Shown here: positions 1,115-20,233 of the stretch, piece after piece | How the letters are laid out: every line of letters begins with the position of its first letter | Position numbering within the stretch: position 1 is the first letter of the stretch | Virus record (IMG/VR): IMGVR_UViG_2531839130_000010 | Length of the DNA stretch: 27,627 nucleotides | Reading direction: 5' to 3' (one strand) | DNA from: a virus | Lineage: Duplodnaviria > Heunggongvirae > Uroviricota > Caudoviricetes | Notes under the pieces: generated by a model | The model's input: only the letters and a program-made list of their open reading frames with translations | Databases searched by the model: none | Told to the model about the DNA's origin: nothing | Position numbers and translations under genes: made by a program

Positions 1115-2188
1115 TTATTTCAACTTTAACGCCAAATCTTCAGCTTTTGGATGATAATACCGCATTAGCATTCTTGGATCTTTATGTCCTGTAATTTTGG
1201 TTAGTTCATGCATAGGGAAAATTTCAGCAAGTCGAGAAGTTGCTTCATGTCGAAGGTCATGAAATCTTAAATCTTTAAGGAAAGATTCATCACATAATGA
1301 GTTTGTTTTCTCGTATCGTTCTCTGGCTCGTTTTACAGCTCGGTCAAAAGCTCGGGTAATCGCGTCTGCACGCATATCAAAAACCTTATCAGCAGCTGGC
1401 TTAGAATGTTCCTTGAGACTGGACAGTATCGTAATGGCTTTCGTTGATAAAGGGACATCGCGGGCATTACCATTCTTAGTATCCGGCAGATGTGCAACTC
1501 GCCGATCAAGATCGATAAAGCGCCATCGAAGCTCTGCGATTTCGCTACGGCGCATGGCTGTCTCTAACGCCAGAAGAATGATTGCTGGCAATACTAATGA
1601 ATGTGTTGCGGCGATGATATGTTCGATCTCGTTGGCTATTTGCTTTCCTGACGTAACACCGGTTTTCTCAGAAACTACAGGCAGCGCTTCTAGGCGTCTG
1701 GTCCTGGAGTTCTTGGGTTGGGGTTTGCGAATGGCCTCTACGGGGTTCAGCAGGCTCTCCATGCCCCATTCTTTCCGCGAAACATTGAATACATGAGAAA
1801 GTAAGGCCAAACGCCTTAAAACGGTTGCAGGAGCATAGATTTTCAACCATTCATCTCTCAGCTTGGCGACATCGGCACTCCTGATGCTGGCCATATAGTT
1901 TTTCGCCAGCTGAGTGCCTTTTAGTATCCGCACCAATGATCGGTCTTGCACTGCCCCTTTTTTGTCGGGAACAATCTCTTTTTCATATCGCGTTAGGGCT
2001 TCATACAATGTCGTAGATTCCGCTTCGCTGCGGCTAAGCCAAACTCCTCTCGCCATTTCTGACTCGATCATTTTGGCCCAAGCTTCTGCTTCTACTTTGG
2101 TGTTAAAGGTTTTGGTTTGAGAGGGAAAACCACGTTTACGGATTTGAGCTTCCCATTGGTAGTTACCACGTTTGCGTATAGTCGCCAT
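1115..2188 (-). CDS. Tyrosine recombinase / phage-type integrase (about 357 aa from the ATG at 2188)
   Basis: C-terminal catalytic motifs FHDLRHEATS (HxxR) and LMRYYHP (catalytic Tyr); N-terminal arm-binding-like MATIRKRGNYQWEAQIRKRG. The track start at 2218 is a TTG; the ATG at 2188 is more plausible. Confidence 0.85.
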   Translation of the reverse strand: MATIRKRGNYQWEAQIRKRGFPSQTKTFNTKVEAEAWAKMIESEMARGVWLSRSEAESTTLYEALTRYEKEIVPDKKGAVQDRSLVRILKGTQLAKNYMASIRSADVAKLRDEWLKIYAPATVLRRLALLSHVFNVSRKEWGMESLLNPVEAIRKPQPKNSRTRRLEALPVVSEKTGVTSGKQIANEIEHIIAATHSLVLPAIILLALETAMRRSEIAELRWRFIDLDRRVAHLPDTKNGNARDVPLSTKAITILSSLKEHSKPAADKVFDMRADAITRAFDRAVKRARERYEKTNSLCDESFLKDLRFHDLRHEATSRLAEIFPMHELTKITGHKDPRMLMRYYHPKAEDLALKLK

Positions 2189-2276: not shown

Positions 2277-2325
2277 CGCATTCGTAATGCGAAGGTCGTA
2301 GGTTCGACTCCTATTATCGGCACCA
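2277..2325 (+). tRNA. 3' fragment (about 49 nt) of a tRNA-Thr(CGU) gene (thrW-like); pseudo-tRNA / att site
   Basis: Readable anticodon stem-loop cgca-TTCGTAA-tgcg (anticodon CGT), T-arm gtagg-TTCGACT-cctat, acceptor 3' strand tatcggc + A + CCA ending at 2325. No complementary 5' acceptor strand (gccgata) upstream, so it is a 3' fragment, not a complete gene. Confidence 0.7.
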
Positions 2326-2328
2326 TCA
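2302..2328 (+). repeat. attL core of the P4-like element: 27-bp direct repeat gttcgactcctattatcggcaccatca (tRNA-Thr 3' end)
   Basis: Exact 27-bp identity with 15192-15218; flanks differ on both sides. Confidence 0.8.
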
Positions 2329-2489
2329 CCTAGTTTTCCCAAGTCAACCCACATCAACAAAATCATTTAAAAACATATATATTACGTTGTTTTCATACGT
2401 TTGAGGTCAACCCTTGTCTCTTGAAATCAACACGCGGTTGGGGGCACAATCAGGGGCATGTTCTGTTCGGTCTAGGAAATGTGCCCCCA

Positions 2490-3680
2490 ATGATGCTGAA
2501 TGCCCGCAAGGTTGAAGCTGCGAAAGGAAAAGAGAAGAGCTACAAGCTGTTTGATGGAGGTGGCCTATACCTTCAGGTCGAACCTAATGGCTCGCGTTAC
2601 TGGCGTATGAAATACCGTTTTGCTGGTAAAGAGAAACGATTGTCCTTTGGTGTTTATCCAACAGTCACACTTGCTGATGCCAGACAAAAACGAGAATACG
2701 CGAAGAAACTACTCGCAGCAGGTGAAGATCCCGGCGAAGTCAAAAAAGCCAAAAAGCAGGCTTTAAATGCAGCGAGTGAGACACTTAACCCATTCAGAGA
2801 AGTGGCGTTAGAGTGGCACAAAATGAAATCACCCAAATGGTCTGAGGGCTATGCTTCCGACATCATTGAGGCATTCGAGAAAGACATTTTCCCGCATATT
2901 GGGCACAGACCTATAGCTGATATTCAGCCCCTTGAACTGCTTGAAGTTCTGAGGTTGATAGAAGCTCGAGGCGCTATGGAGAAAGCGAAGAAAGTCCGTC
3001 AGCGATGCGGTGAAGTTTTTCGCTATGCCATCGTAACGGGTAGGGCAATCTACAATCCGGCACCGGATCTTGCCAGTGCGATGCAAGGACATGAAGCAGT
3101 CCACTATCCATTCCTCAAAGCCAACGAACTACCGGAGTTCTTTAATGCCCTTAATTCTTATTCAGGAAGTCCAATTGTATTGTTGGGGGCGCATTTACTT
3201 ATCCTGACAGGTCTACGAACTGGAGAACTACGAGCAGGTGAGTGGCGAGAGGTGGATTTTGATAATGCGGTGTGGGAGATCCCAAAAGAACGTATGAAAA
3301 TGCGTAGGAGCCATATTGTCCCGTTGTCAAAACAAGCATTATCCCATCTCAAAAGTTTGAAAGAACTAACTGGGAACTACCCGCTGATGTTCCCTGGACG
3401 CAACGATCCCAGCAAATTTATGAGTGAAGCAAGCATTAATCAGGTGTTTAAACGTATTGGATATGCAGGGCGTGTTACGGGGCATGGTTTCAGGCATACG
3501 ATGAGTACAATCCTACATGAGAAAGGATTTAACAGCGCTTGGATTGAAACCCAGCTTGCTCATTCGGACAAAAACTCTATTCGTGGAATTTATAACCATG
3601 CCCAATATCTCGAAGGGAGAAGAGAAATGATGCAATGGTATGCTAATTATTTATCTGAGCAAATTGGTACTCATAAATGA
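2490..3680 (+). CDS. int: P4-type tyrosine integrase (about 396 aa from the ATG at 2490)
   Basis: N-terminal P4-integrase signature KVEAAKGKEKSYKLFDGGGLYLQVEPNGSRYWRMKYRFAGKEKRL; catalytic HGFRHTMST (HxxR) and C-terminal Tyr region. Track start 2421 is a TTG. Confidence 0.9.
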   Translation: MMLNARKVEAAKGKEKSYKLFDGGGLYLQVEPNGSRYWRMKYRFAGKEKRLSFGVYPTVTLADARQKREYAKKLLAAGEDPGEVKKAKKQALNAASETLNPFREVALEWHKMKSPKWSEGYASDIIEAFEKDIFPHIGHRPIADIQPLELLEVLRLIEARGAMEKAKKVRQRCGEVFRYAIVTGRAIYNPAPDLASAMQGHEAVHYPFLKANELPEFFNALNSYSGSPIVLLGAHLLILTGLRTGELRAGEWREVDFDNAVWEIPKERMKMRRSHIVPLSKQALSHLKSLKELTGNYPLMFPGRNDPSKFMSEASINQVFKRIGYAGRVTGHGFRHTMSTILHEKGFNSAWIETQLAHSDKNSIRGIYNHAQYLEGRREMMQWYANYLSEQIGTHK

Positions 3681-4501
3681 ATATTTTAAAAATTAATAAT
3701 ACTGATTCTCTGCTCAGAGATTACTACCAGTTGGATGAAGCTTCAGAAAAAATTGGTTGTAGTGAAAAGGATATACTCTGGTTTGCCAGAGAACGAGATG
3801 TAGAGCTATGCATGGAATTCCATGATGATGAGTATGATGTTTCATGTGGTTTGAAGATTGATGGTCAAATAGATGAGTTCTTATCTAATCTGAAATATTT
3901 ACCACGAGATAGAAATGGCAATATTATGTTGTCAGACTTAAGTTCTATAAGAATCCCTGATGAAGATAATTTAATTGATAAAAATGGTTTTATTCGATGC
4001 TTCATATCCGGTTTATGGGCTGTTGATTATGAATATAAAGATCTGTTAGTTAAGCATGAGGGGCAACCGGATTCCTGGCCTATTCATTTTCTACTGGCGG
4101 GTACGCCTAATATAAATTGTAAGGTAATTCTTTATGTAAATTATGATGAAAAAGAAAATTATTATCTTTTTGAGGTTTTGTGGATTACAAAGGTACAGAT
4201 TCAAAAATTCATTGATATAGTCTTATGCGAACAAAAGCGGATAAAAAACGCCAATAAATATAAATCACAATCTGAGGCGCAAAAACAAAAACATGCTGTT
4301 CCTCGAGCTGAAATACTCATGGCTATTATTTCGCTCTATCATCGTGATATGAGGCTAAGAAGAGAGAGTCCAGCAGCGATAGCTGATTATCTTTTTCAAC
4401 ATGCCAGTGAGTTCTGGCCTAAGACCGGAGAACCGCCTTTGAGCTATGATACTGTTGTTAGTTTGCTACGTAGTTGCATGAAAAACATTAAGTTTAACTA
4501 A
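3677..4501 (+). CDS. Hypothetical protein (274 aa), AT-rich orphan cargo gene between int and alpA
   Basis: ORF track; ATG overlaps the int stop (ATGA); composition visibly more AT-rich than the flanking P4-like backbone; no motif I can recognise. Confidence 0.5.
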   Translation: MNILKINNTDSLLRDYYQLDEASEKIGCSEKDILWFARERDVELCMEFHDDEYDVSCGLKIDGQIDEFLSNLKYLPRDRNGNIMLSDLSSIRIPDEDNLIDKNGFIRCFISGLWAVDYEYKDLLVKHEGQPDSWPIHFLLAGTPNINCKVILYVNYDEKENYYLFEVLWITKVQIQKFIDIVLCEQKRIKNANKYKSQSEAQKQKHAVPRAEILMAIISLYHRDMRLRRESPAAIADYLFQHASEFWPKTGEPPLSYDTVVSLLRSCMKNIKFN

Positions 4502-4626
4502 ATATTAACAATTGTTGTGGCTAATGATTTTGAATTTTTTTCATTAGTCACATTTTTCTCATTTATAACCTATGTTTTAATTTTCCGTGTTGAAGCCAAT
4601 AGACTTAGATAAACGGAGAATGATGA

Positions 4627-4917
4627 ATGTTATCTAAACATGATAATACTACTTTGCAACGACCTTCAATGGATTCTCTGATCGATATGAAGTTTATTAC
4701 TTCCAATTGTTTATTAAGTGATAAATGGATTTATCGATTGATTTCTCTGAATCGCTTTCCAAAACCTATAAAAATAGGTCGGATGTCACGATGGCGCGCT
4801 GCTGATTATTATAAGTGGCGAGATGGGTTTGAAGAAAACTCAGGTCAACAGTTTGAGGGGATGAGAAATAAGGCAAGAGCAATTAATAAAGGGAATAGAT
4901 TATCACCTACTCCCTAA
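4627..4917 (+). CDS. alpA: AlpA-family phage transcriptional regulator / excisionase-like protein
   Basis: Core LLSDKWIYRLISLNRFPKPIKIGRMSRWRAADYYKWRD resembles AlpA-type HTH (RFPKP motif, conserved W after HTH); GGAG RBS 8 nt upstream of the ATG. Confidence 0.7.
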   Translation: MLSKHDNTTLQRPSMDSLIDMKFITSNCLLSDKWIYRLISLNRFPKPIKIGRMSRWRAADYYKWRDGFEENSGQQFEGMRNKARAINKGNRLSPTP

Positions 4918-4949
4918 GCCTTAATTGATAGTTAGTAATATTTAACTGA

Positions 4950-5123
4950 TTAGCCTTTAGGGTCAATCCCGCGTGATTGGAGTTCTTTGCGTAAAATTCT
5001 TTTAATCCAAGTTGCCAACGCGCTATCTCCATCTTTGCGCATTTCGTTTTCGAGTTGCAACCTAAAATCGTCGGTAAGACGCATTTGGAATGGTGGAGAA
5101 CGTTTCTCTTGTGGTGTTGACAT
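4950..5123 (-). CDS. Small ribbon-helix-helix (Arc/MetJ-like) DNA-binding protein, 57 aa (below ORF-track cutoff)
   Basis: Manual translation of minus strand: MSTPQEKRSPPFQMRLTDDFRLQLENEMRKDGDSALATWIKRILRKELQSRGIDPKG; beta-strand then two helices typical of RHH. The overlapping plus-strand ORF 4987-5187 looks non-protein-like. Confidence 0.5.
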   Translation of the reverse strand: MSTPQEKRSPPFQMRLTDDFRLQLENEMRKDGDSALATWIKRILRKELQSRGIDPKG

Positions 5124-5163
5124 GGTAATTACCCTAGAATATGATGACTACATGGTAATTACC
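5117..5163 (+). promoter_or_regulatory. Candidate sigma70 promoter (TTGACA-17 bp-TATGAT) with two copies of the palindrome GGTAATTACC (operator-like)
   Basis: TTGACA 5117-5122, TATGAT 5140-5145; 15-mer direct repeat (g/t)ACATGGTAATTACC at 5119-5133 and 5149-5163, each containing the perfect 10-bp palindrome GGTAATTACC, 30 bp apart; overlaps the start of the RHH gene. Confidence 0.45.
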
Positions 5164-5254
5164 ATTGTAAGTATAGTTCGCTTGTAAAAGCAATGCCCGA
5201 TTGTGCGGGAACACAAATCGGGCATTTAACCAACCGTTATAAGAGGTAACGAAG

Positions 5255-5431
5255 ATGGCTAAACAGAAGTGTACCTGGTTATTTGCGGCGATCAACCGCA
5301 GTCAACGCAATGCCCGTCCTGTGATGTTAAGGATCACCGCAGATAACGAGCGGTCAGCGCGGCGCAGACTTGCCCCGGACTATGTACTGAGCTTTGCCGG
5401 GCGCATTCCCTGCGGAGGTGAACATGCGTAA
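5255..5431 (+). CDS. Small protein (58 aa), possibly Icd/Ash-like P4-family protein
   Basis: Manual translation MAKQKCTWLFAAINRSQRNARPVMLRITADNERSARRRLAPDYVLSFAGRIPCGGEHA; AAGAGG RBS upstream. Family assignment is from memory only. Confidence 0.45.
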   Translation: MAKQKCTWLFAAINRSQRNARPVMLRITADNERSARRRLAPDYVLSFAGRIPCGGEHA

Positions 5432-5783
5432 TTATCCGCATCCCGGCGAACGCTGGCAGCATGAACGTGGCTGGACGGTCACGATTATCCGATTAATAGA
5501 AGCCTCGCCCTCTGTGGCGCTGGTTAATCCTGAATTCAGCTGTGAAGTGCTGATACGTCATGACAGCGACAACCAGCTTTCTTCCTGCCCTCTGGCATGG
5601 TTTGAACAGCGATATACGCGCCTGTTTGATGTACCACTCTTTAAGCCTGCACCAGCTCCTGCAGGCGGTAGTGGTTCCGGCCCGCTGACACTGCATCCGT
5701 CTGTGCTATTTATCCGCTGGCGGGAGCGTAGCATATGGCGTTCTGCTGAGCCTGATGACGGTCACTATTCAAAGTTTCTCTGA
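5424..5783 (+). CDS. Hypothetical P4-like protein (about 119 aa from the ATG at 5424)
   Basis: ORF track (5394 start is a TTG); ATG at 5424 has a GGAGGTG RBS and overlaps the upstream stop (ATGCGTAA), suggesting translational coupling. Confidence 0.5.
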   Translation: MRNYPHPGERWQHERGWTVTIIRLIEASPSVALVNPEFSCEVLIRHDSDNQLSSCPLAWFEQRYTRLFDVPLFKPAPAPAGGSGSGPLTLHPSVLFIRWRERSIWRSAEPDDGHYSKFL

Positions 5784-5814
5784 CACAATACCGCTGAAAA
5801 CGGAGTAATCCACG

Positions 5815-6099
5815 ATGAATATTTCAAACGGGCACAACGGTGCTCAGGGCCACACTTTGCCTGAAAAACACAATACCGGTGTTTTTGCCTATGGGTTGTC
5901 AGAGGACAGTTTCGGAAAGCTGACCCGCGCAAGAAATGCCTGCGACATGCTCCAGCTTCTCTTTTCTGAATACCCGTCTCAGGCCGGAGCACTGGACACT
6001 GGCTGTGCGCATGGTGTCGCCGCGCTGATGGAGTACCTGCTGGCAGATTTGACGGATATTGCACACAGCTGCGCACTGATTGAAGGAGGTGCCAGATGA
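5815..6099 (+). CDS. Hypothetical protein (94 aa)
   Basis: ORF track; GGAG RBS; stop overlaps next start. Confidence 0.5.
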   Translation: MNISNGHNGAQGHTLPEKHNTGVFAYGLSEDSFGKLTRARNACDMLQLLFSEYPSQAGALDTGCAHGVAALMEYLLADLTDIAHSCALIEGGAR

Positions 6100-6479
6100 A
6101 CCAGCCGCAGGTTTCCATTTTCCCGGCAGAAATGACCACCGCGCTTTACCGGCGGGCTATTGCTTCAGCATGGCGGCAGAAAATGCTGAACGAAACTGGC
6201 AGTGATCAGTATGGTCCGCACAGCCTGACGGTGGAGCGTATTGAAATGGCCATTGCGCTGCATATCGAGTGCGTACTGATTAACGAGTACGGCGAAGCAC
6301 AGGGCGCCGCTGCCGCGCTGGCACTGCTGACTGACATGCTGGAGCCGTCACTGCTGACCGCGCCGCCGGTACTGACCGCGCGCGGCTGTGAAGTGATGGC
6401 GGAGATGTACCGCACGCTTCCGGCGGCCTTTGATGACTTCTGCAGTACCGGTGTGACGTTGTATCAGGGGGAAGTATGA
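6096..6479 (+). CDS. Hypothetical protein (127 aa)
   Basis: ORF track; AGGAGG RBS; ATGA overlaps with neighbours on both sides (operon). Confidence 0.5.
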   Translation: MNQPQVSIFPAEMTTALYRRAIASAWRQKMLNETGSDQYGPHSLTVERIEMAIALHIECVLINEYGEAQGAAAALALLTDMLEPSLLTAPPVLTARGCEVMAEMYRTLPAAFDDFCSTGVTLYQGEV

Positions 6480-9148
6480 CAATACAGACGGTTACGCAGA
6501 TTTCAGCCGCCGCACGGGGGAAATGGCCCGTTATTCTCCAGATGCTGCGTATTGATGTACCTGAAAACGGCAGGCACGGTCCCTGCCCGAAATGTGGGGG
6601 CAAGGATCGTTTTCGCCTTGATGACCTTGACGGGCGCGGGACGTGGATCTGCAGCCAGTGTGGCAATGGTGACGGTCTGGATCTGGTTAAGCTCGTAACC
6701 GGTTACAGCATCAGAAAGGCTGCGCAGGAGGTGGCGCAGGTGCTTAATGTGCCGGATGTGCAGGAACTGCCTGTTAAGCCTGCCAGACAAAAAGCCCCTA
6801 AACGCGACATGGGTCTTACCGTGGCGGCGCTGATGAAAGAGAGCCACACGGGAGAAAGCGCCTATCTGACAGGAAAAGGGTTCGCCGGATACCCGGCCTC
6901 TCTGACCGGAAGCGTGCAGCATATCAGCGGTAAGGATTTTCCTGCCGGTTCCCTGCTGTTACCACTCACGACCAACACCGGAGCCGTGACTGGTGCACAG
7001 CTTATCGCCCCGACGGGTGAAAAAAGCATACTGCCCGGCAGCACGATGAAAGGCGCGTTTGTGTCGCTCAGCCCGTTACCGTCTGAACCACCGGTACAGG
7101 TGGTGATTACCGAAGGTTACGCTACGGCGCTGACGGTAAGTCAGCTCACTGCCGGATGCGTAGTGGCTGCCATATCTGCGGGCAACCTGCCCAATGTGGC
7201 GCAGTCGCTGCGGGCACGCTGGCCTGAGGTAAAAATTATCATCGCCGGTGATAACGATTTTCAGGACGGAGGTGAGAATCCCGGCAGAGCCTTTGCTGAA
7301 CGGGCGGCAAAAGCTGTTGGCGGCTGGATGACGCTGCCACCAGGAGAGATTAAGGCTGACTGGAATGACTTTCATCGGGAGCACGGTATTACCCGTGCCC
7401 GTGAAGCCTTTCGCAACGGTCTGGTACTGTGCGGGGAAGGCCGCACGCAACTGCCGCACGGGTTCCGTCTTACCCAGGAATATCTCTGGTATGAAAAGCA
7501 GGTACAGCGCAACGGTGAGACGGAGATCCAGAACGTCAAAATATGCAGCCCGCTGCGCGTGACGGCAATCACCTGCGATGCCGATGGCGGTAACTTCGGA
7601 CGACTGCTGGAATGGGAAGATACGTGGGGTGAGTGTCGCCGCTGGGCGATGCCGATGGAAATGCTGAGCGGCAGTGGTGAGGAACTGCGCCGGGTACTGC
7701 TGGTTAACGGGCTGTCTTATATCAGCACCACCGGTGAGGCACGCGCACGCCTGATGGAATATATCTCACTGTGTAAACCGGAACGCCGCGTGACCTGCGT
7801 CAGTCGTACTGGCTGGCATGGTCAGGTTTACGTCCTGCAGGATGAGGTCAGCGGTGAAGGTGCAGAGGGTGTCATTCTCCAGACCACTTCCGTGCAGGGG
7901 CGTGATTTCCGCGTGTCGGGCACAACAGAGGAATGGCGGGAGCATGTATCCCGCTACTGTACCGGCAACTCCCGCGTGGCATTTGCTGTCAGCCTGGCCT
8001 TTGCTGCACCACTGTTACGGCTGGTTGGTATGGACGGCGGCGGCTACCACCTCAAAGGGGAATCGACAGACGGTAAGACCACCACCATGAAAGCGGCAAC
8101 CTCCGTCTGCGGCGGGCCTGACTACTGGCAGACATGGCGGGCCACCGGCAACGCGCTGGAGGGATGCGCCAGCCGCCGCAACGATGCCGCCATGATGCTT
8201 GATGAGATCCGGGAAGTTGACGGACGCGAGGCAGGCAATATCGCCTACATGCTGGCAAACGGTCAGGGCAAGGGCCGTGCCGGTACGGACGGTGAGCTGC
8301 GTACCCGTAAGCAGTGGCGCCTGTTGTTCTTTTCAACTGGCGAGTTGTCTCTGACCGAACATGCGGCAAAGGCCGGTGAGCGTACTTTTGCCGGGATGGA
8401 AGTCAGGATGATCCAGATCCCCAGCGATTCCGGGAAGTTTGGCGTTTTTGAGGAGCTGCACGGCTTCGACAGCGGCAAGGCTCTGGCAGAGCATCTTGAA
8501 TGGGCCACGTCCTGCTACTACGGTTCGCCGTTCCGGGAGTGGCTGAAAGCACTGACCGCTGATCTTAACGGACTAACGGCACAGGCAAAATCGCTGATGA
8601 AGGAATATGCTGCCGCCCTGACTCCGAAAGATGCAGGCAATCAGGTGGGCCGGGCTGTGAACCGCTTTGCTCTGGTGGCGATGGCAGGTGAACTGGCAAC
8701 CCGTCTGGGTATCACCGGCTGGCCTGAGGGTGAAGCACTGCGGGCAACCCGCGTCTGCCTGAACGCATGGCTGAAAGATCGCGGGCACACCGCCAATCAG
8801 GAAGATATCGCCGCACTGGAGCAGGTTCGCAGTTTCTTCACCGCGAATCAGTACAGCCGCTTTGCAGACTGGTATGACGAGCGCAACCGCCCCGGCAATA
8901 TGGTGGGCTGGCGCAGGGTGGAGAAAGGCAGTACCGCGCAGGGCACGGAAGCTGTCACTACGTTCTATGTCATGCCGTCCGGCTGGAAAGAAATCTGCAG
9001 GGGATTTGACCCGCGCAAGGTGGCGCGTCTGTGCGCAGATCGTGGATACCTGCTGCCCTCCACTGATGGCAAACTCCAGACAACCATTCGCCCGCCAGAG
9101 ATGAATCCCCGCAGGCTCTATGTCTTCAACAGCGAGGTGCCGGGTTAA
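6476..9148 (+). CDS. P4 alpha-type primase-helicase (890 aa)
   Basis: N-terminal zinc-binding CPKCGGKD...CSQCG; Toprim-like VVITEGYATA ... IIIAGDNDFQDGGENPG; C-terminal helicase Walker A GESTDGKTT and Walker B-like MMLDEIRE. Confidence 0.9.
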   Translation: MTIQTVTQISAAARGKWPVILQMLRIDVPENGRHGPCPKCGGKDRFRLDDLDGRGTWICSQCGNGDGLDLVKLVTGYSIRKAAQEVAQVLNVPDVQELPVKPARQKAPKRDMGLTVAALMKESHTGESAYLTGKGFAGYPASLTGSVQHISGKDFPAGSLLLPLTTNTGAVTGAQLIAPTGEKSILPGSTMKGAFVSLSPLPSEPPVQVVITEGYATALTVSQLTAGCVVAAISAGNLPNVAQSLRARWPEVKIIIAGDNDFQDGGENPGRAFAERAAKAVGGWMTLPPGEIKADWNDFHREHGITRAREAFRNGLVLCGEGRTQLPHGFRLTQEYLWYEKQVQRNGETEIQNVKICSPLRVTAITCDADGGNFGRLLEWEDTWGECRRWAMPMEMLSGSGEELRRVLLVNGLSYISTTGEARARLMEYISLCKPERRVTCVSRTGWHGQVYVLQDEVSGEGAEGVILQTTSVQGRDFRVSGTTEEWREHVSRYCTGNSRVAFAVSLAFAAPLLRLVGMDGGGYHLKGESTDGKTTTMKAATSVCGGPDYWQTWRATGNALEGCASRRNDAAMMLDEIREVDGREAGNIAYMLANGQGKGRAGTDGELRTRKQWRLLFFSTGELSLTEHAAKAGERTFAGMEVRMIQIPSDSGKFGVFEELHGFDSGKALAEHLEWATSCYYGSPFREWLKALTADLNGLTAQAKSLMKEYAAALTPKDAGNQVGRAVNRFALVAMAGELATRLGITGWPEGEALRATRVCLNAWLKDRGHTANQEDIAALEQVRSFFTANQYSRFADWYDERNRPGNMVGWRRVEKGSTAQGTEAVTTFYVMPSGWKEICRGFDPRKVARLCADRGYLLPSTDGKLQTTIRPPEMNPRRLYVFNSEVPG

Positions 9149-9182
9149 GGCTTTGCGTGAGTCTTATTTATTAAGGGTAACA

Positions 9183-9370
9183 GGTGAAACAGGTGGAACA
9201 ACCGTATTTTACAGGGCTGAACCTGTTCCACCTTCTGAAATAGTGAGGTGGAACAGATGTAACGCCAGCCAATCCGCTGTTCCACCTTGTTACCCGCGAT
9301 GTTCCACCGGTGCAGTGTATATAAATGTCTTATAAAACAAAGCTGTAACACATGTTTCACCTGTTCCACC
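9183..9370. repeat. Iteron cluster: 8 copies of TGTT(C/T)CACC in both orientations (candidate crr/ori-type replication element)
   Basis: Copies at 9183-9191(-), 9192-9200(-), 9224-9232(+), 9247-9255(-), 9278-9286(+), 9300-9308(+), 9353-9361(+), 9362-9370(+), immediately downstream of the primase gene. Confidence 0.6.
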
Positions 9371-9458
9371 GCATCAGGGACATAAAGCAGACTGAAACAG
9401 AGGGCATTTTTATCTGGCTGGCTTTCATAGCCACGTCTGAATAACCGCAAGCGCCCGT

Positions 9459-9514
9459 TGTGCCAGCCACCACACACTGAACACCGATAGTGTGCTTGTG
9501 TCAGCCACGACACA
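9459..9514 (+). promoter_or_regulatory. Two TGT-N12-ACA dyads (Ogr/Delta-type activator boxes) upstream of the sid-like gene; candidate late promoter
   Basis: TGTgccagccaccacACA at 9459-9476 and TGTgtcagccacgacACA at 9497-9514, sharing a cagccac core; the sid-like ATG is at 9549. Confidence 0.4.
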
Positions 9515-9548
9515 ATTGACGTAACGAACCAACCCGACAGGAGAAGTC

Positions 9549-10292
9549 ATGAACAATACCGCAGTAAATAACAACCTTTCCACTTTTCCGGCTGTAACGC
9601 AGCGGGCACTGGAAACCATGAACACAGCCAGAAACGCATGGCTTGAAGCACGTCGTCAGCAGAAAGCGGCAGCGGATAATATTGCGACAATCCGCCAGCG
9701 TCGCGCTGAAATGGAAGCCACGACGAACACACTGAATGAGGAGTGGCGCACGCTGTTTCGTGAAAGTCAGGGCGTGGTCTCAAAGGAAATGAAAAAACTG
9801 CGCACGGAAATTGCGCTGGGACGAGAAACGCTTGAGGATTTTGATGAGCTGCTGGCGGCTCAGGAAAGCGAAAATGCACTTTTGCCGCAGAAAGCTGCAG
9901 AATTAGCCGGAAAGTATATCCACGCGCATAACATTCTTGTGGATATTCGCGCAAAACAAATCTGGGAGGATTTTATGCAGTCGCATGGAAAAGCGCTTAT
10001 TCAGACGCTGAGCCTGCTTAAATCCACAATGGGCCGGGAAGCCAGTGCCGTTGTGGGTGTGGTGAATTCAGTTAATGACCCGGACACAGTGCTGAAAGAC
10101 TTTATTCATAAACATATCACCAGACCGGCTCTGGCTAACGATGCGATGCCTGAGCAGGACCCGGTGTTTAAACTGGCGGGAGTTGCCCCGGATTATGCGG
10201 CGCGTCTGGATTTCAGTAATCAACTCTCTCCGGCAGCTATGCATAAAATTAAGGTTCGTCAGGAACTTGCTGAGAAGGAGAAAGCAGTATGA
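9549..10292 (+). CDS. Sid-like (capsid size determination) protein candidate, 247 aa
   Basis: Position after primase/iterons and before psu-like and delta genes; size close to P4 Sid; helical, charged sequence; AGGAGA RBS. No motif-level proof. Confidence 0.4.
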   Translation: MNNTAVNNNLSTFPAVTQRALETMNTARNAWLEARRQQKAAADNIATIRQRRAEMEATTNTLNEEWRTLFRESQGVVSKEMKKLRTEIALGRETLEDFDELLAAQESENALLPQKAAELAGKYIHAHNILVDIRAKQIWEDFMQSHGKALIQTLSLLKSTMGREASAVVGVVNSVNDPDTVLKDFIHKHITRPALANDAMPEQDPVFKLAGVAPDYAARLDFSNQLSPAAMHKIKVRQELAEKEKAV

Positions 10293-10840
10293 CGGCCCGA
10301 GGCACGCCTGACCAGGCACTTACCAGTTTTCGGAATGCCCGCATTCTGTGGGCCGGACATAATGAGAGCCGAAAAGCCGTTGAACAACAGATAACATCTC
10401 TCCTCGCTGCCACAGAAAAACCAGCAGATTATGCCCGACAGCTCGAATTACTGCGGGAACGTCTGGATGTGCTGAAATGGCAAATTAACTGTGCTGCGCG
10501 CGAATGCATTTACTCGCAGCATTTACTGATGGAGGCCTGCACAGAAGCCGCTCTCAGCAATTTTATGCAGGCGAATGGGGCAGCCCTGACATCTGCACTG
10601 GCTCCGTTCCTGAAGGGGCGCGGAGGGGTTGACGTTGCGTCCCGTATATTACGCAGTGCTCTGGTTCGCCAGCTGGCAATAACACCGCCTGAAATTGCTG
10701 GGGATTATCGTGAGATCCTGGATGAATCCGGTTTGATGCCTGACCCCGGGATGATTCGTGATTGCCAGGGTTCTTACACCCCGGCACAACATCTGCGTTT
10801 TCAGCAACGCCTGAATGACATTAACGATATACAGGAGTGA
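10289..10840 (+). CDS. Psu-like (polarity suppression) protein candidate, 183 aa
   Basis: Size and position next to the Ogr/Delta gene as in P4-like elements; AGGAGA RBS; start overlaps upstream stop. Assignment by synteny only. Confidence 0.4.
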   Translation: MTARGTPDQALTSFRNARILWAGHNESRKAVEQQITSLLAATEKPADYARQLELLRERLDVLKWQINCAARECIYSQHLLMEACTEAALSNFMQANGAALTSALAPFLKGRGGVDVASRILRSALVRQLAITPPEIAGDYREILDESGLMPDPGMIRDCQGSYTPAQHLRFQQRLNDINDIQE

Positions 10841-10845
10841 TATTA

Positions 10846-11118
10846 ATGGCACTTAAATGTCCGGAATGCGGTACAGTTGCACACGCCAGAACAGCAGCCT
10901 ATGAAGCTCCGTCAGTTAAACGCTCGTGGTATCAGTGCCAGAATCTGGAATGTTCCTGCACATTTACGGCACTGGAGAGTGTGGATAAGATAATCATGAA
11001 ACCCCGGCGCAATGAACAGGAACCAGACAAATCACAACCCCCGGTAAAACAACAGCAAACGCTCAATCGCTATGGCTCCGCGTCAAAACTGTCAAGCCGT
11101 CAGCAGATTCCTGTCTGA
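10846..11118 (+). CDS. Ogr/Delta-family zinc-finger late-gene transcriptional activator (90 aa from ATG 10846)
   Basis: MALKCPECGTVAHARTAAYEAPSVKRSWYQCQNLECSCTF has the C-x2-C ... C-x4-C spacing and HART motif of P2 Ogr / P4 Delta; AGGAG RBS 8 nt upstream. Track start 10837 is a GTG. Confidence 0.8.
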   Translation: MALKCPECGTVAHARTAAYEAPSVKRSWYQCQNLECSCTFTALESVDKIIMKPRRNEQEPDKSQPPVKQQQTLNRYGSASKLSSRQQIPV

Positions 11119-11141
11119 TTAGAAAAAAACGCCCACGTAAT

Positions 11142-11165
11142 CCCGGTCGAGTACCGGGATTTTTA
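11142..11165 (+). terminator. Rho-independent terminator after the delta gene
   Basis: Hairpin cccggt-cgagt-accggg followed by aTTTTT. Confidence 0.6.
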
Positions 11166-11512
11166 ACACCTTTTCCCTGGCTGGCCTGAGAGCGTATGAG
11201 TGCATGTCTATGGCGCATGAAAATGCATGAGTCTTATGCACCCTTTTTGAGGCGAAAACCTTTGTGTGGTGGTATCTGAGACGATTTATGGCATGCATGA
11301 AAACCAGTCTGTTAAGCGAAGCGGGCAGGCGTGCGGGGCTGCCCGCGTAAGGGCGTTGAATGGTATAACTATGGCACGGTTACCGCATGTTTTGAGCTGT
11401 AATCGAAGTTATGAAAATTACTATATAAAGCGGTCGCTGTTGTGGAGATACGATTGCGGGAAGTGATGGAAAGAGCTATAAAAAGTACAGAGGATAGTTT
11501 AATGAGGGTATT

Positions 11513-12790
11513 ATGAACCGTCAGCCGTTTACTTCAGCAGCACTTAAACGAAACTTAAGTGAAAGTGAGAAGGCTTATTATTTTAAAAAAAATAATGTTG
11601 CTGAGTTAGAATCATTAATTAGTGATGCCGTTTTAATTGCTAATGAGAATTTTCGCTCTGGTGTGAGTGTAAAGAAACTAAATATTAAGGGACGCTGCGT
11701 TTACACTGCTTCATGTTTGAAGGAAAAAATAATACTTAGACATTGCAATGCAAATTTAAAATGCCTTGAATCGCTTCGTCCCAAACAACGAAATACAATA
11801 ATTAGTGAGCTTAAAATTTATTTGGAAGAAGGTACTCCATTCAAAATATATCGTTTGGATATAAAGTCTTTCTTTGAATCAATTGATTTACCGCAGCTTT
11901 TTCAGCTCTTACATAACGAAACACGACTGTCTAGACATACAAAAAATTTGCTAGAATGGTATCTTAAATCGTGTGAAAGGCTTCACTCTTCGAAAGGATT
12001 ACCTAGAGGGTTAGAAATTAGTCCTATGTTATCAGAATTGTACTTGGCACAATTTGATAATAGTATTCATAGGCATCCAGAAGTATTTTATTATTCAAGA
12101 TTTGTAGATGATATGGTAATCGTTTCAAGTGGTTGTGAATGTGAAGCGTCCTTTATGGAATTTATACAAGATGTATTACCAAAGGGATTGGCTTTAAATA
12201 AAAATAAATTAAAAATATCTCCATGCATACCAAAGAGAAGTAAGGGTTTAAATAAACAGGATAAATTGCTTCATGAATTTGACTTTCTAGGGTACTCGTT
12301 TTCTATAATAGACACACCTTTGAGCAAAGATGGTGAGATTAATAGCTGTTACAGAAAGGTTGTTGTTAATTTATCTAAATCTCGCCTGAAGAAAATTAAA
12401 ACAAGAATAGCTAGGTCTTTCTACTCTTATCATATTAATGGTGATTTTAAACTATTGCTAGACAGGATTTCTTTTTTGACTAGTAACAGGGATTTAAATC
12501 GCAAAATAAAATCGTTAAGTTCTTTAGAAAAAAGCAAGATAAGTACAGGTATTTATTACAGTAATGCGAAGTTAGATGTTGACTCCATATCCCTAAAAAA
12601 ATTAGATGACTTTTTGCTATATTGTGTGCAATCTAATACTGGGCGTTTGAATAGTGTTGCAAAAAAACCTTTTAATTTGAAGCAAAAAAAAGAACTGCTA
12701 AGAAATAGTTTTAGAAAAGGCTTTGTGGATAGAGTATATAGAAAGTATAACTTTAAGCGCTATACTGAGATTACAAAAATATGGTTATAA
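11513..12790 (+). CDS. Reverse transcriptase, 425 aa (UG3-like; first gene of a DRT type 3-like pair)
   Basis: RT motifs read directly: YRLDIKSFFESI (motif 1/2), GLPRGLEISPMLSELYL (motif 4), RFVDDMVIV (catalytic motif 5), FLGYSF (motif 7). Strongly AT-rich versus the P4 backbone; stop overlaps next gene start. Confidence 0.8.
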   Translation: MNRQPFTSAALKRNLSESEKAYYFKKNNVAELESLISDAVLIANENFRSGVSVKKLNIKGRCVYTASCLKEKIILRHCNANLKCLESLRPKQRNTIISELKIYLEEGTPFKIYRLDIKSFFESIDLPQLFQLLHNETRLSRHTKNLLEWYLKSCERLHSSKGLPRGLEISPMLSELYLAQFDNSIHRHPEVFYYSRFVDDMVIVSSGCECEASFMEFIQDVLPKGLALNKNKLKISPCIPKRSKGLNKQDKLLHEFDFLGYSFSIIDTPLSKDGEINSCYRKVVVNLSKSRLKKIKTRIARSFYSYHINGDFKLLLDRISFLTSNRDLNRKIKSLSSLEKSKISTGIYYSNAKLDVDSISLKKLDDFLLYCVQSNTGRLNSVAKKPFNLKQKKELLRNSFRKGFVDRVYRKYNFKRYTEITKIWL

Positions 12791-14799
12791 AGAAAAACAT
12801 TAAACTTGATAAGAAAGATTATCTCAGGGCTTTACTATGTGATACACTGCCCGGTGATTGTCCAATTATTTTTTCAAATGATGGCTTATATATAAACTTA
12901 ACAGAATATGATAGAGTTTGTAATGATTTGTTACATTTTACTCCGGTTTCTTCTTTCTTAAAAAAAATAGTTAACCCTAATTTAGACTCTTCTATTAGTG
13001 TCGCAGATCGCCACCGAGAAAAGAAGAAACAAAGCTCCCCATTTGGCTATTGTATAGTAAAAGATGCCTTTAGCCAAAGACATCTTTCTTTAATTCACCC
13101 AAGATCTCAAATTAATTATTCGGAATTTTATAAAACATACTCATCCGTTATCACATTAAATACTTTAAAAAGTAATTTTTCTATTCGCTACCCACGTAAG
13201 GTCGCTAACTCTTTCTTTTTATATGAAAATAATGCTTTGGAAAAATATAAAGGGGAAGATATCGAAACAACAAAGGATGAGTTAATGAGGAAATATTCAT
13301 CCTCTTATTTTAGTTATGGCGGTTTCAACAGGATATATAAACTATTTCAAAGTAAGATGTTTATTGAGCTTGAGAAAAGATTCTCGGTGATGTGGATGTT
13401 AGATGTATCACATTGTTTTGATAGCATATATACGCATTCGGTTTCTTGGGCATTAAAAAATAAATCATATATAAAAAAACATGTTAAACACAGCAATCAA
13501 TTTGGACAAGAATTAGATACACTGATGCAACGTAGCAATAATAATGAAACAAATGGAATACCTATTGGTTCAGAGTTTAGCAGGGTTTTTGCAGAATTAA
13601 TATTTCAGCGAATTGATTGCAATATTGAGTCATGCCTTCTTAGTGAACATGGATGGGTTAATAATAAAGATTATGTTATATTGAGATATGTAGATGATTT
13701 TATTGTTTTTTGTAATGGTGAGTCAAGTGCCGAAGTTATTACAAAAATAATTAATGTGAAGTTAAATGAATATAATCTACAATTAAATGTAAACAAGCTT
13801 AAGAAGTATTCTAGGCCATTTTGCACTAGCAAGACAAGTTTGATTGTCAAAGTTAATGAATTAATTCGCAATTTAGAAATTAAACTGTATGAAAAACGTG
13901 ATAGTGGCTTTACTTTAAATAAAATAAGAAGTAAGCATGATTTAAAGATATATGTAATTAATCATGTCAAGTCTATATGCATTGAAAATCAAGTGTCTTA
14001 TTCTGATGTTTCATCATATATAATATCATCTCTTTCCAAAAGATTAATATCAATAATTGATATATTACGAGTTCAAGAAAATGAAGATGATGTAGATGTA
14101 AAAAAAAGGATTAAGGACTTAATTTTCACAATAACCGATATTATGTTGTTCTTTTTCAGTGTTAACCCAACTGTTTCATCATCTTATAAATTATCAAAGA
14201 CAATGGTTGTTGTTAATAACTATTTGAATGAAATATCTAGTGACTATAGTAGTATTTTTATGACTACGTTAGTGAATGCTGCGGAAAACATTAATTTTGG
14301 TGAGAATGATAATGGGCTGTTTATTGATGATTTCATTTCAATTGAAAAGGTTAATTTAATCTTGGCTGCTACTTTTTTTGGAGATAATTATCTTATAAGT
14401 GACAGTTTTTTTCATGGAGTTATACATAAAAAGAAATTGGACTACTTTACTATAATCTCACTGCTATTCTATTTTAGAAACAGAAGATCATTCCGAAAAT
14501 TGAAGTGTATAATAGAGGGTGAAATAAAGGAAATATTAAGTTCTAATATGGATTTGCTGCAATCATCGGAAAAGGCACATTTATTTTTGGATGTCATGTC
14601 ATGTCCATTTGTCTCAATAGAGACAAGGCGTTTTTTATATAGAAAATATCTCAAGAGCTATGAGCCAAAGCTGAACAGAAGTCATCTGGAGATTGAGAAT
14701 GATTTGCAATCTCTGCTTCAAACATATTGGTTTGTCAAGTGGGATGAGTTAGATATTGTGAAAATGATTGAGAAAAAAGAATTGAAAGAAAGCTATTAA
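12781..14799 (+). CDS. Reverse transcriptase, 672 aa (UG8-like; second gene of a DRT type 3-like pair)
   Basis: RT motifs: MLDVSHCFDSI (motif 2), GIPIGSEFSRVFAELIF (motif 4), RYVDDFIVF (catalytic motif 5), LQLNVNKLKKY (motif 6); long N- and C-terminal extensions; 10-bp overlap with the upstream RT gene. Confidence 0.8.
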   Translation: MVIKKNIKLDKKDYLRALLCDTLPGDCPIIFSNDGLYINLTEYDRVCNDLLHFTPVSSFLKKIVNPNLDSSISVADRHREKKKQSSPFGYCIVKDAFSQRHLSLIHPRSQINYSEFYKTYSSVITLNTLKSNFSIRYPRKVANSFFLYENNALEKYKGEDIETTKDELMRKYSSSYFSYGGFNRIYKLFQSKMFIELEKRFSVMWMLDVSHCFDSIYTHSVSWALKNKSYIKKHVKHSNQFGQELDTLMQRSNNNETNGIPIGSEFSRVFAELIFQRIDCNIESCLLSEHGWVNNKDYVILRYVDDFIVFCNGESSAEVITKIINVKLNEYNLQLNVNKLKKYSRPFCTSKTSLIVKVNELIRNLEIKLYEKRDSGFTLNKIRSKHDLKIYVINHVKSICIENQVSYSDVSSYIISSLSKRLISIIDILRVQENEDDVDVKKRIKDLIFTITDIMLFFFSVNPTVSSSYKLSKTMVVVNNYLNEISSDYSSIFMTTLVNAAENINFGENDNGLFIDDFISIEKVNLILAATFFGDNYLISDSFFHGVIHKKKLDYFTIISLLFYFRNRRSFRKLKCIIEGEIKEILSSNMDLLQSSEKAHLFLDVMSCPFVSIETRRFLYRKYLKSYEPKLNRSHLEIENDLQSLLQTYWFVKWDELDIVKMIEKKELKESY

Positions 14800-14972
14800 T
14801 TTGATAAATATGAGTCGTGGTCAGTTTCAAAATACTTACGTCATCGTCGTCGGTGTATTTTATATCGATTATGAAGACGATTTCGCTGGAACTGAAATCG
14901 GCTTGAATGCTTAAACTTAAGCTAAAAAAACAGTTTGAGACCAAAGCCTAAATTATTAGGCTTTGGATTTTC
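14800..14972 (+). ncRNA. Candidate structured non-coding RNA downstream of the RT pair, ending in a terminator hairpin
   Basis: No credible ORF; local self-complementarity (atcgtcgtc ... gaagacgat); ends with hairpin ccaaagcct-aaattatt-aggctttgg plus ATTTT at 14941-14971. Purely a candidate. Confidence 0.2.
14941..14971 (+). terminator. Rho-independent terminator downstream of the RT operon
   Basis: Perfect 9-bp stem ccaaagcct/aggctttgg, 8-nt loop, followed by aTTTT. Confidence 0.55.
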
Positions 14973-15191
14973 AGGTTCAGTTGAGAGTAATTGCTGTCTG
15001 TTTATTGCTTAACCAATACAGTTAGTGGTGCTTACACACCTGATGTTGAGAAACTGACCACACCAATACAACCTTTTGTTTGTCTTCAACTGTGTAGACT
15101 ACTAAACACGAATCAGCAGTTAGGGGCATGTATGGGGGCATTGGTTTTAATTTTTTATAAAATATCAATTTTTTCATATTGTTAAGTTATT

Positions 15192-15218
15192 GTTCGACTC
15201 CTATTATCGGCACCATCA
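15192..15218 (+). repeat. attR core of the P4-like element: second copy of the 27-bp tRNA-Thr 3'-end repeat
   Basis: Exact copy of 2302-2328; no tRNA body upstream of it. Confidence 0.8.
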
Positions 15219-15821
15219 AGAAAATCAATAACTTAGCTTAACTTCTCTAAGAAATTGTATCTTCTGTTATCACTTACAAACGCCTATACGTTGTTATGGG
15301 CTTTGGTAGTGTAACACGTATGGGCGAGTAGTTCCCAGGCTCAACCTCGTAACAAGTTCCTTTGAAGCTGGAAGACGTGCCACCGTCTCTAAACCTTCTA
15401 CCAAAACTCTTAGCAAGATGTTCCACACCTGGCGCGGTGTCCAATGATGCTACACGTCGTGAGACGTTGCAGAGGATAAACAGGCTAAATGATGGGAAGA
15501 GTTTTAAGTGCAATAGTGGATTAAAGCCCACCTCTTCAAAACCTAACTTGATCGGGAAAGAATCAAGCTCTAGCACGGTTTCGTCCACCGGAGTACAACG
15601 GGTGCCTGATAAGAGAAGAACTGCTAAGACTTCATAGCTTTTGTGAAAAAGCCCTTTTTAGTGGATACGCCTACGGCGCTTATTTTTTGGTATAACCATC
15701 AAAGGCGCTTTATGGCTCCTATTGTCTTGAAAATGTATCTTTACTTGTATTGTGTTTTATGCGTAGCCTTCCTGTGTAGTATGTAACTTGTTCATTTTCA
15801 TATGAATACAGAGGCAACACG

Positions 15822-15974
15822 ATGAAAAACATTGCAGCTATCAAACGTAATAACCGCAAGATTCACGCTCGTAAGTTCCTGTCTACGCCAGAAGGAAAAG
15901 CCTGGCTAGAGCGTAAACAGCGAGAGAACGAAGAAAGAAAACTCCTTAGTGAGTTGAAATGGCTTAAGGATTGA
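15822..15974 (+). CDS. Small basic hypothetical protein (50 aa; below ORF-track cutoff)
   Basis: Manual translation MKNIAAIKRNNRKIHARKFLSTPEGKAWLERKQRENEERKLLSELKWLKD; GAGG-like RBS about 9 nt upstream. Confidence 0.3.
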   Translation: MKNIAAIKRNNRKIHARKFLSTPEGKAWLERKQRENEERKLLSELKWLKD

Positions 15975-16539
15975 ACCACCAGTAGGCGCATAACACATCC
16001 AGCGATCAAAGATGTGTTTATGCACCTGATAGTGAAATTATTAAAGTCGTTTAGTTAACATCGCCATTGCTTGAGCAATAATTGCAACAGCGTCCATCTC
16101 TTCACTGGAAGCGATGCAAATGCGGTAACTAATAGCCACAACGAATACATCAATAACGAGAAAGTGAATAGTGTGAAGATGTTTTGAAAGTAAATGCATA
16201 ACTTCCTCCGGTTTTACGATAGGAAGATTAGAACATGCATTAAATGATGTTACAAGGGTGGTAATTTACCCTAATAGTCTACTATTCACCTCAATCTACG
16301 TCAACCAATATTTGATGTAGATTTAATTTTCTTTTAAAAACAATATGTTGCAATTTGTTGAATTTTGGGGTTAGGTTGTTTTTTGAACGTTTTCATCAAG
16401 TGTAAAGATACGTTTAGCCTTCATAGTGAGTTCAGTTACTGTCTTTTTCTCTGAAATCGGCGCAGACGTGATCAATGTTTAACGCGAAGATCAGCGGCGT
16501 CAGGTCCACGCAGCGACAATTCTCAAATATCAGGAGGCA

Positions 16540-17097: not shown

Positions 17098-17655
17098 TTT
17101 CCTTCTGTGTTGATTTGTGTGTAGTGATTATTGATCGTGTTGATTAGGTGTGTAAAGGACTTTTTTCACTACGAAATTCGAAGGTTTTTAGTGTGGTGAT
17201 TTAGCCTGCTTTATCACTACACGTCTTGCATGAGAATCATGTAGTTACATTTTGGTAAAATTAGCAAGCTATTAAATAGTGTGTTTATTTTGAAAAAATA
17301 ATTTTTTGTTGCATTAAAGGAAACTTGTTCGACAAATAATAGATTGATTTTTAATCAACAATTTCTGATAGTGCTCTGTAAGCCGTATTACACAAGGCTT
17401 TGCGAAAGTGATGTAAAAGTGAAGAAAGCTAACATTGCACTTTTTAAGCTACTTTTCATTGGATTTTTACGTAGGAATTACACAGGGATTAATCATCAAT
17501 TACATTGAATTTAAGCCTGTTTTAGATGTTTAATTTTGGTAGCAAGAAACACTTTTAGAAGATCATTGCACAGATGCTATGTGATGATTGGATGTAACGG
17601 TAGGTCACTGTGAGCTACCCCTATCAAGTCTGATACCCGATAAGTATAAATAACA

Positions 17656-20210: not shown

Positions 20211-20233
20211 TAACAGGAGAAGGAGAAAACCAA

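Follow-up and report, generated by a model that had tools for sequence, protein, structure and literature searches.

The 27,627-nucleotide stretch of DNA in IMG/VR virus record IMGVR_UViG_2531839130_000010 (hereafter, the window) contains an integrated element at positions 2302-15218. We consider it very likely that this is one integrated copy of a P4-related but architecturally distinct satellite, inserted at thrW and carrying a DRT3 defense system as cargo. We are highly confident of what the element is, where its boundaries lie, and what it carries. The satellite is the middle of three tandem integrase-type islands at thrW of Escherichia coli.

An exact 27-bp direct repeat (GTTCGACTCCTATTATCGGCACCATCA) flanks the element. 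The two copies are 12,890 bp apart and enclose 12,863 bp; by our own estimate, about 2e-8 exact pairs of 27-mers would be expected by chance in 27.6 kb. Comparing the repeat, base by base, to the annotated thrW (tRNA-Thr, anticodon CGT) of E. coli PEC1003 showed that it is the 3'-terminal 24 nucleotides of the gene plus TCA.

We compared positions 2200-15300 of the window to 5,426 complete E. coli genomes, using megablast. About 13 of these genomes have near-identical copies (99.8-100% identity) that match the window from 2277 or 2280 to 15216 or 15219, and the neighbors of these copies vary. In PEC1003, the copy has the upstream island (E1) at its left and paoD at its right; in MB52, it has a different, frameshifted integrase at its left and paoD at its right. 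In GPEC60-12-649, the left flank and the element are 100% identical to the window, and the right flank is differently arranged. We also searched for the empty site: a synthetic junction (2100-2328 fused to 15219-15450) has a single ungapped match of 461 nucleotides in six genomes, at 97.6-99.6% identity. And in AH21I008, an intact thrW with its TCA is joined directly to the window's right flank, which is the third island (E3). The empty junctions and the near-identical copies with varied neighbors show that the unit was inserted as a discrete piece and that the 27-bp repeats are its true boundaries. An earlier reading of this DNA, made from its sequence only, had claimed that these repeats delimit a unit of about 12.9 kb and had proposed the comparison to empty sites; both held up. 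Neither the 12.9 kb without the repeats, nor the repeats without integrase-linked cargo, turned up in related genomes.

The order of the array is (thrW ...) E1, a 49-nucleotide fragment of thrW, the satellite, the 27-bp core, and E3. The left repeat is embedded in the 49-nucleotide fragment, which comes from the right end (attR) of E1; the E1 integrase gene starts directly upstream of it. There is no intact tRNA gene at the integrase-proximal junction, because of the tandem array. Within the window, ARAGORN finds no tRNA, and neither does Rfam, either at its gathering threshold or at E ≤ 0.5. Relatives of the element in C21 and A287 (92% identity) adjoin an intact tRNA, in the order proA-thrW-int, so the family does attach at thrW. 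The sequence-only reading had described the repeat as the 3' end of a tRNA-Thr(CGU) gene at a thrW-type site. This is correct for the repeat and for the relatives, but the window itself has just the fragment. More broadly, an island that appears to be flanked by a tRNA can be in the middle of an array, and its tRNA-like sequence can be just a fragment.

We also noticed that the right attachment copy is damaged in the C21 relative (13800-13910), where it reads GCTTGACTCCTATTATC-GCACCATT. In the A287 relative (13980-14140), a tandem array of (CCCATGCTT)n replaces the arm motifs and the core. Both relatives lack psu as well. These two copies may be immobilized, given the damage on the right and the missing psu.

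Core genes and comparison to P4

All large open reading frames (ORFs) between the repeats are on the + strand, and the sole exception is one ORF of 57 amino acids (Table 1). The gene order is int-X-HTH-icd-two small ORFs-DUF5375-primase-ori-sid-psu-delta-cos-cargo, where X is a 274-amino-acid core protein and HTH is a helix-turn-helix protein.

Table 1. Features of the element and of its immediate surroundings in the window.
Feature	Position	Strand	Evidence or remarks
Integrase of upstream island E1 (outside the element)	1115..2188	-	Pfam Phage_integrase 1.6e-26; RefSeq "site-specific integrase" in PEC1003 and GPEC60-12-649
thrW 3' fragment, 49 nucleotides	2277..2325	+	comparison to PEC1003 thrW; the gene's 5' 27 nucleotides are missing
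Left 27-bp repeat, attL core	2302..2328	+	24 nucleotides of thrW 3' end plus TCA
Candidate arm-type Int sites, left arm, (A/T)GGGG(G)CA	2439, 2452, 2482 (inverted); region 2439..2489		k-mer comparison of both att-proximal arms; putative function
P4-family tyrosine integrase	2490..3680	+	RefSeq start 2490, ORF open from TTG 2421; Pfam Arm-DNA-bind_3, Phage_int_M, Phage_integrase
Protein X, lineage-specific core protein, 274 amino acids	3677..4501	+	overlaps int stop codon
AlpA/Vis-like HTH regulator or excisionase	4627..4917	+	PF05930 E = 3.7e-4; phrog_66, phrog_2790
57-amino-acid antisense ORF between HTH and icd genes	4950..5123	-	called at the equivalent position in RefSeq, Pantoea, and Erwinia
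Icd/Kil-like small protein	5255..5431	+	phrog_1743/6928, as P4 cI/kil ORF; tblastn 54% to P4
Small protein	5424..5783	+	phrog_30862
Small protein	5815..6099	+	phrog_14861
DUF5375 protein, P4 orf106 family	6096..6479	+	PF17345 8e-14; phrog_5991 in common with P4 orf106
Primase-helicase, 890 amino acids	6476..9148	+	Zn-ribbon, Toprim, and DUF927 by Pfam; phrog_1139
Iteron cluster, 8x TGTT(C/T)CACC	9183..9370		both orientations; all 8 occurrences in the window
Psid-like late promoter operators, two TGT-N12-ACA dyads 38 bp apart	9459..9514 (dyads 9459, 9497)	+	upstream of sid
Sid-like capsid-size protein	9549..10292	+	phrog_6165 8.7e-93, full length
Psu	10289..10840	+	full-length PF07455 match, 1e-44; P4 Psu is 30% identical
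Ogr/Delta-type late activator, single zinc-finger unit	10846..11118	+	PF04606 7.5e-16; phrog_603 as P4 delta
cos-homologous region, TGCATGAAAACC ... AAGCGGGCA|GGCGTGCGGGGCTGCC, at the end of the conserved core	11200..11347		gapped alignment to P4 cos
drt3a, UG3-class reverse transcriptase, FVDD motif	11513..12790	+	PADLOC Drt3a 6e-131; RefSeq name
drt3b, UG8-class reverse transcriptase, YVDD motif	12781..14799	+	PADLOC Drt3b 8e-204; RefSeq name
Candidate DRT3 noncoding RNA	14817..15060	+	ACACAC template 15034-15039; 13-bp closing stem 14816-14828 / 15049-15061
Candidate arm-type Int sites, right arm, AGGGGCATGT / TGGGGGCA	15119..15143		motifs at 15122, 15133
Right 27-bp repeat, attR core	15192..15218	+	
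Third thrW island E3 (outside the element)	15219..27627		resolvase, IS3, HTH_36 protein, and others

The element resembles P4 in several ways. It has a tyrosine integrase of the same family that uses the 3' end of a tRNA; it shares the Kil/Icd-like, orf106, Sid, Psu, and Delta families and, with a marginal Pfam match, the AlpA/Vis-like family; and it has a region homologous to cos that is followed by accessory genes. The integrase (PF00589, 1.1e-25) is 43% identical to P4 Int, and the catalytic residues (R, HxxR, H, and Y) are in place on the alignment. The HTH protein and P4 orf88/Vis have phrog_66 and phrog_2790 in common, and P4 Sid matches phrog_6165 too, at 6e-116. As the sequence-only reading had stated, the motifs of the integrase, the domains of the primase, and the zinc finger of Delta look intact.

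However, the element's map is not P4's. The order of integrated P4 (NC_001609) is int-cII-(beta, gop)-cos-(psu, delta, sid reversed)-ori-vis-cI-eps-orf151-orf106-alpha-crr. The element's late operon comes after the replicase and is co-directional with it, in the order sid-psu-delta, and Delta is a single unit. The att site is between the hotspot and int, instead of between alpha and int; it is at thrW, instead of leuX; and int is followed by the extra 274-amino-acid core gene. The helicase and origin-binding part of alpha is replaced by DUF927. DNA similarity to P4 is confined to 265 bp in int. We found no homologues in the element of P4 epsilon, orf151, cII, gop, or beta, by either tblastn or PHROG comparison, and the PHROGs of P4 epsilon (10016 and 3688) are absent. 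The two small proteins ahead of the DUF5375 protein are encoded where P4 has epsilon and orf151, yet they are not homologous to them. The element also lacks isrK and the seqA/B targets of P4.

The canonical P4-like satellites of E. coli (we used those of strain 155, L012, and at leuX, L013) are closer to the element in one module. Their sid-psu-delta-cos DNA is 86-92% identical to the element's, and they likewise have a defense hotspot next to cos. But they keep the P4 layout, which is tRNA-int-cargo-cos-late operon reversed; their early operons end in an alpha protein of about 777 amino acids; and their int and early genes are unrelated to the element's at the DNA level. So the claim that the element's gene order matches an integrated P4 map must be given up, as order and orientation differ both from NC_001609 and from the canonical P4-likes.

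Moura de Sousa and Rocha defined P4-like satellites by seven components (PMC8628076). The element has four of these: integrase, Psu, Delta, and Sid (for Sid, we used phrog_6165 as a proxy for their custom profile). AlpA is marginal; neither epsilon nor alpha (PF03288) is present. The conserved P4-like organization, int-hotspot-psu/delta/sid-alpA-eps-alpha, is not that of the element. The components that are detectable, and those that are missing, are the same as in SatelliteFinder's "P4-like Type C#var01", which is without epsilon and alpha (PMC10085698); this class is set by the presence or absence of markers only. Calling the element a P4-like satellite was thus right in that it is a P4-related, satellite-type element, but epsilon, the alpha helicase, and the cI/C4 RNA are absent and AlpA is marginal. 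It is a well-delimited and fairly ordinary satellite of a catalogued class, and RefSeq annotates its genes individually. We found no description in the searchable literature of its architecture, its DUF927 replicon, protein X, or its lack of C4 RNA. Our analysis documents a common variant architecture among P4 relatives that marker-based surveys list merely as lacking epsilon and alpha, and the practical value of the element is mainly corrective and descriptive.

The domains of the replicase are Zn_Ribbon_Prim, Toprim_3, and DUF927, and P4 alpha aligns to it only at residues ~4-311, which is the N-terminal, primase third (38% identity). The iteron cluster that follows is the predicted replication origin. 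The iteron is TGTTCCACC in E. coli and TGTTACACC at the equivalent place in the satellites of Pantoea and Erwinia (L019 14503-14905 and L020 14400-14850). The repeat that P4 alpha binds is TGTTCACC, and the element's iteron is one base off from it. The iteron sequence varies with the replicase, although in this lineage the C-terminal domain is DUF927, unlike in P4 alpha.

The late module lies behind the two dyads upstream of sid. P4 also has two TGT-N12-ACA dyads before sid (at 9493 and 9531), with identical spacing; we take this pattern to be that of the Ogr/Delta binding sites at P2/P4 late promoters.

Following the module is a cos homologue. The 19-nucleotide cohesive end of P2 and P4 has no match, at up to 3 mismatches, and the homologue of cos was revealed only by gapped alignment. 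In local alignment to the cos region of P4, the 230 bp 3' of delta score 63, versus 26±4 for shuffled sequences. In a multiple alignment of P2, 186, P4, and the element, the common sequence is TGCAT(T/G)AAAACC ... AAGCGGGC(G/A)|GGCG(A/T)G(G)CGGGG. Compared to 186, the element's version lacks one G, after which the two diverge. The canonical E. coli P4-likes (both strain 155 and the leuX element) have the identical variant of cos, so we view it as a normal type, not as decay. We also noticed a 30-nucleotide imperfect direct repeat (73% identity) between the 3' part of the primase gene (8712-8741) and the start of the cos region (11174-11203), of the form TC(A/C)C(C/T)GGCTGGCCTGAG... P4 has a similar TCCCGGCGCGGTCTGAGCG motif ahead of its cos.

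Of the 5,426 complete E. coli genomes, 322 (about 6%) contain the segment 5255-11342 at 80% coverage or above. Homologues of protein X, at 54-61% identity, are found in Pantoea, Erwinia, Citrobacter, and Enterobacter. In the members from Pantoea and Erwinia, protein identity is 55-60% and the gene order is unchanged; since these members have it, the sid-delta module is ancestral to the lineage. Tentatively, we suggest that there might be a distinct, experimentally uncharacterized lineage of satellites, from Escherichia to Pantoea and Erwinia, that exploits P2-family phages without epsilon or RNA immunity and with a different regulatory logic. The layout of this suggested lineage would be int, X, HTH, the antisense ORF of 57 amino acids, icd, DUF5375, the Toprim/DUF927 replicase, the iteron origin, sid, (psu), delta, cos, and the hotspot. 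Possibly, protein X or the small antisense ORF is involved in a different logic for sensing the helper. More speculatively, the antisense ORF could encode a repressor that substitutes for the RNA immunity of P4. By eye, its product had looked like a ribbon-helix-helix repressor, an idea that Pfam does not support.

DRT3 cargo in the cos-adjacent hotspot

Ten satellites of this lineage in IMG/VR share their core up to ...GGCGTGCGGGGCTG (~11340-11347 in the window), and each of them continues with different DNA. Because the homology among these differently loaded satellites stops at 11346/7, the variable hotspot starts directly after cos. A hotspot next to cos has been published for P4-likes (PMC9122126, PMC13586616).

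In this element, the hotspot contains a DRT3 defense system, which makes up about a quarter of the element and which the sequence-only reading had overlooked. The PADLOC matches to Drt3a and Drt3b run end to end. The DRT3 system of E. coli ECOR12 (EcoDRT3) has been studied experimentally: Drt3a copies the 5'-ACACAC-3' loop of a downstream noncoding RNA (ncRNA) into poly(dTdG), while Drt3b produces poly(dCdA) without a nucleic-acid template (PMC13174585). RecBCD restrains the double-stranded DNA product, and the phage protein Gam triggers abortive infection (PMC13174585). The anti-phage phenotype and the synthesis of poly(TG)/(CA) are known only for EcoDRT3 (PMC13174585). Like EcoDRT3, the element has an operon of two reverse transcriptases, with a UG3-type Drt3a, a UG8-type Drt3b, and YxDD motifs, and a candidate ncRNA downstream with an ACACAC template; the position of the ncRNA and its template match those described (PMC13174585). 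All three parts of a DRT3 system thus seem to be present in the cargo.

Several observations support the candidate ncRNA. Conservation downstream of drt3b extends to about 15070, and it does so even in a relative with 76% identity. The template is the only noncoding ACACAC, and it lies within a block (GCTTACACACCTGATGTTGAGAAACTG) that is invariant across four loci. In the consensus fold, the closing stem keeps its pairing via a compensatory double change, from G-C to A-U, and 7 of the 69 predicted pairs have double changes. The whole spacer downstream of drt3b has a folding z of -7.1. Our search for relatives of Drt3b yielded one partial locus, which limited the covariation analysis. Rfam gave no match to a DRT3 ncRNA family, at either gathering or permissive thresholds, and the EcoDRT3 ncRNA has no detectable sequence similarity to the window. 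The two ncRNAs also differ in length (161 nucleotides in EcoDRT3, about 245 here), and they are alike only in the template. We had considered a hairpin and T-run at 14941-14968 as the terminator that ends the ncRNA, but it falls inside the conserved, structured region. The candidate ncRNA ends about 60 nucleotides short of the Int arm motifs.

The retained ACACAC, despite the divergence of the reverse transcriptases, would fit with a strong constraint that keeps the product of Drt3a complementary to the poly(dCdA) of Drt3b. The element offers a second, deeply diverged, predicted DRT3 system with an ACACAC template, which should be useful for comparing how the two products stay complementary.

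Mobilization and alternative explanations

We propose that Int, probably with the AlpA/Vis-like protein, would recombine the two cores to form an excised circle. During the late phase of a P2-family helper phage, the helper's Ogr and the satellite's Delta would fire the sid operon, and Sid and Psu would redirect the assembly of the helper's capsid to small heads. The satellite would replicate from its iteron origin, and the helper's terminase would act at cos to cut and package it. While the satellite is resident, its cargo would protect the host. By homology to EcoDRT3, Drt3a would make poly(dTdG) from the ACACAC loop and Drt3b would make poly(dCdA) without a nucleic-acid template, and the resulting double-stranded DNA would trigger abortive infection once a phage inhibits RecBCD.

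The sequence-only reading had called the element plausibly mobilizable by a P2-like helper, and we lean slightly towards helper-dependent mobilization. A helper from the P2 family is a sensible guess, based on Sid, Psu, Delta, the Psid-like dyads, and the cos homologue. Since epsilon and the cI RNA are absent, both the derepression of the helper and the satellite's own immunity must differ from P4's, and helper sensing and immunity are the one point where novelty could emerge. If the lineage is mobilized, then it would be a natural test of which P4 functions (epsilon, the cI RNA, and the alpha helicase) are dispensable for hijacking P2.

Several observations weigh against our interpretation. 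We infer excision, replication from the iterons, late activation by Ogr and Delta, and packaging at cos from homology and anatomy, and the defense function likewise. Among the scanned ORFs of the element, none matches epsilon/Ash (PF10554) in Pfam, and P4 epsilon has no tblastn match. The C4/cI immunity RNA, isrK, and c4-a1b1 do not appear anywhere in the window in Rfam at E ≤ 0.5, while all three are detected in P4 as a control (C4 at 5e-13). Pfam finds no PF03288 helicase domain in the replicase. The AlpA match is marginal: PF05930 scores 20.8 bits, where the cutoff is 21, and its E value of 3.7e-4 compares to a threshold of E ≤ 1e-5 (with at least 40% coverage). The segment that aligns to the 19-nucleotide cohesive end has insertions or deletions relative to P2, P4, and 186. 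No P2-like phage with the identical cos variant was found in IMG/VR or in the phage collection, so the helper cannot be named. Scanning IMG/VR for a phage that shares the variant brought up nothing but satellites from this lineage and high-GC matches due to chance, and the spacer between cos and the hotspot has no blastn match among 50,697 phage records. As for the cargo, Drt3a and Drt3b are just 32% and 38% identical to those of EcoDRT3 (for Drt3b, in the listed N-terminal part only), and the structure of the ncRNA rests on four sequences, which is supportive and not conclusive.

So we also considered that the element might be a domesticated or defective remnant: a defense island, derived from a satellite, that is no longer induced or packaged and that spreads by homologous recombination in the thrW region. 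The missing epsilon and cI RNA, a cos 19-mer unlike that of P2/P4, and the lack of a matching helper would all fit with this. Furthermore, given its position in an array, flanking homology could move the element, and attR is degenerate or replaced in C21 and A287. Against this, all core ORFs are intact, and the two att cores are perfect, with arm-like motifs on either side. The precise empty junction in six genomes and the 99.9% identity of the unit in different contexts also speak against a remnant. The same core has been found with ten or more cargos, swapped exactly at cos; the lineage is conserved across genera; and the canonical E. coli P4-likes have the identical cos variant. We consider a remnant to be unlikely.

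Another possibility is that the element is a phage-inducible chromosomal island (PICI), or some other non-P4 integrative element with an int-alpA-primase layout, which merely acquired a sid-psu-delta-cos cassette and uses a non-P2 helper or another route of transfer. Enterobacterial PICIs do share the int-AlpA-primase backbone, a fixed integration site, and accessory genes at one end; neither this layout nor the DUF927 replicase is specific to P4, and, according to SatelliteFinder, P4-likes score as Type C PICIs (PMC10085698). Also, the identity of 86-92% to the canonical P4-likes is confined to the late module, which suggests that modules were exchanged. But PICIs divert packaging with Ppi/Rpp or their own capsid genes and rely on pac or lambdoid helpers. 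The element's genes include sid, psu, and delta, next to a P2-type cos, but neither terS nor any gene of the Ppi/Rpp type or for a capsid. Its Icd/Kil and DUF5375 proteins and the primase's N-terminal domain belong to P4 families, and the iteron is one base away from the alpha site. The sid-delta module was already in the Pantoea and Erwinia members, and the only packaging signal that we found is a P2-family cos. This explanation seems quite improbable to us.

Finally, a canonical P4 prophage with the integrated P4 map would share the int, psu, delta, sid, orf106, and kil families with the element, but direct comparison to NC_001609 (order, orientation, helicase, the 265 bp of similarity in int, and the missing epsilon, orf151, cII, gop, and beta), along with the null result for C4 RNA in Rfam, refutes this map and makes the idea scarcely credible.

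Neighboring islands

Only the end of E1 is in the window. Besides the integrase, it has, on the minus strand, a VbhA-family antitoxin (1-228) and an ORF of 296 amino acids (215-1105) that has no match in Pfam or PADLOC. These may be a toxin-antitoxin pair with an unrecognized toxin. In related genomes, E1 also has remnants of traJ, trbJ, and trbL.

In many E. coli genomes, RefSeq/PGAP annotates a 112-nucleotide "tRNA-Ser" that is equivalent to 2214-2325 of the window. This is probably a recurring annotation artifact, because it consists of E1 DNA and the 49-nucleotide thrW fragment, where ARAGORN and Rfam find no tRNA.

E3 includes a resolvase gene on the minus strand (16540-17097), three 22-nucleotide repeats (17655-17756), a copy of IS3 (about 18139-19310), the gene for an HTH_36 protein (20358-21026), and several further ORFs with no assigned family. 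In AH21I008, E3 sits on an intact thrW and has its own integrase at its end.

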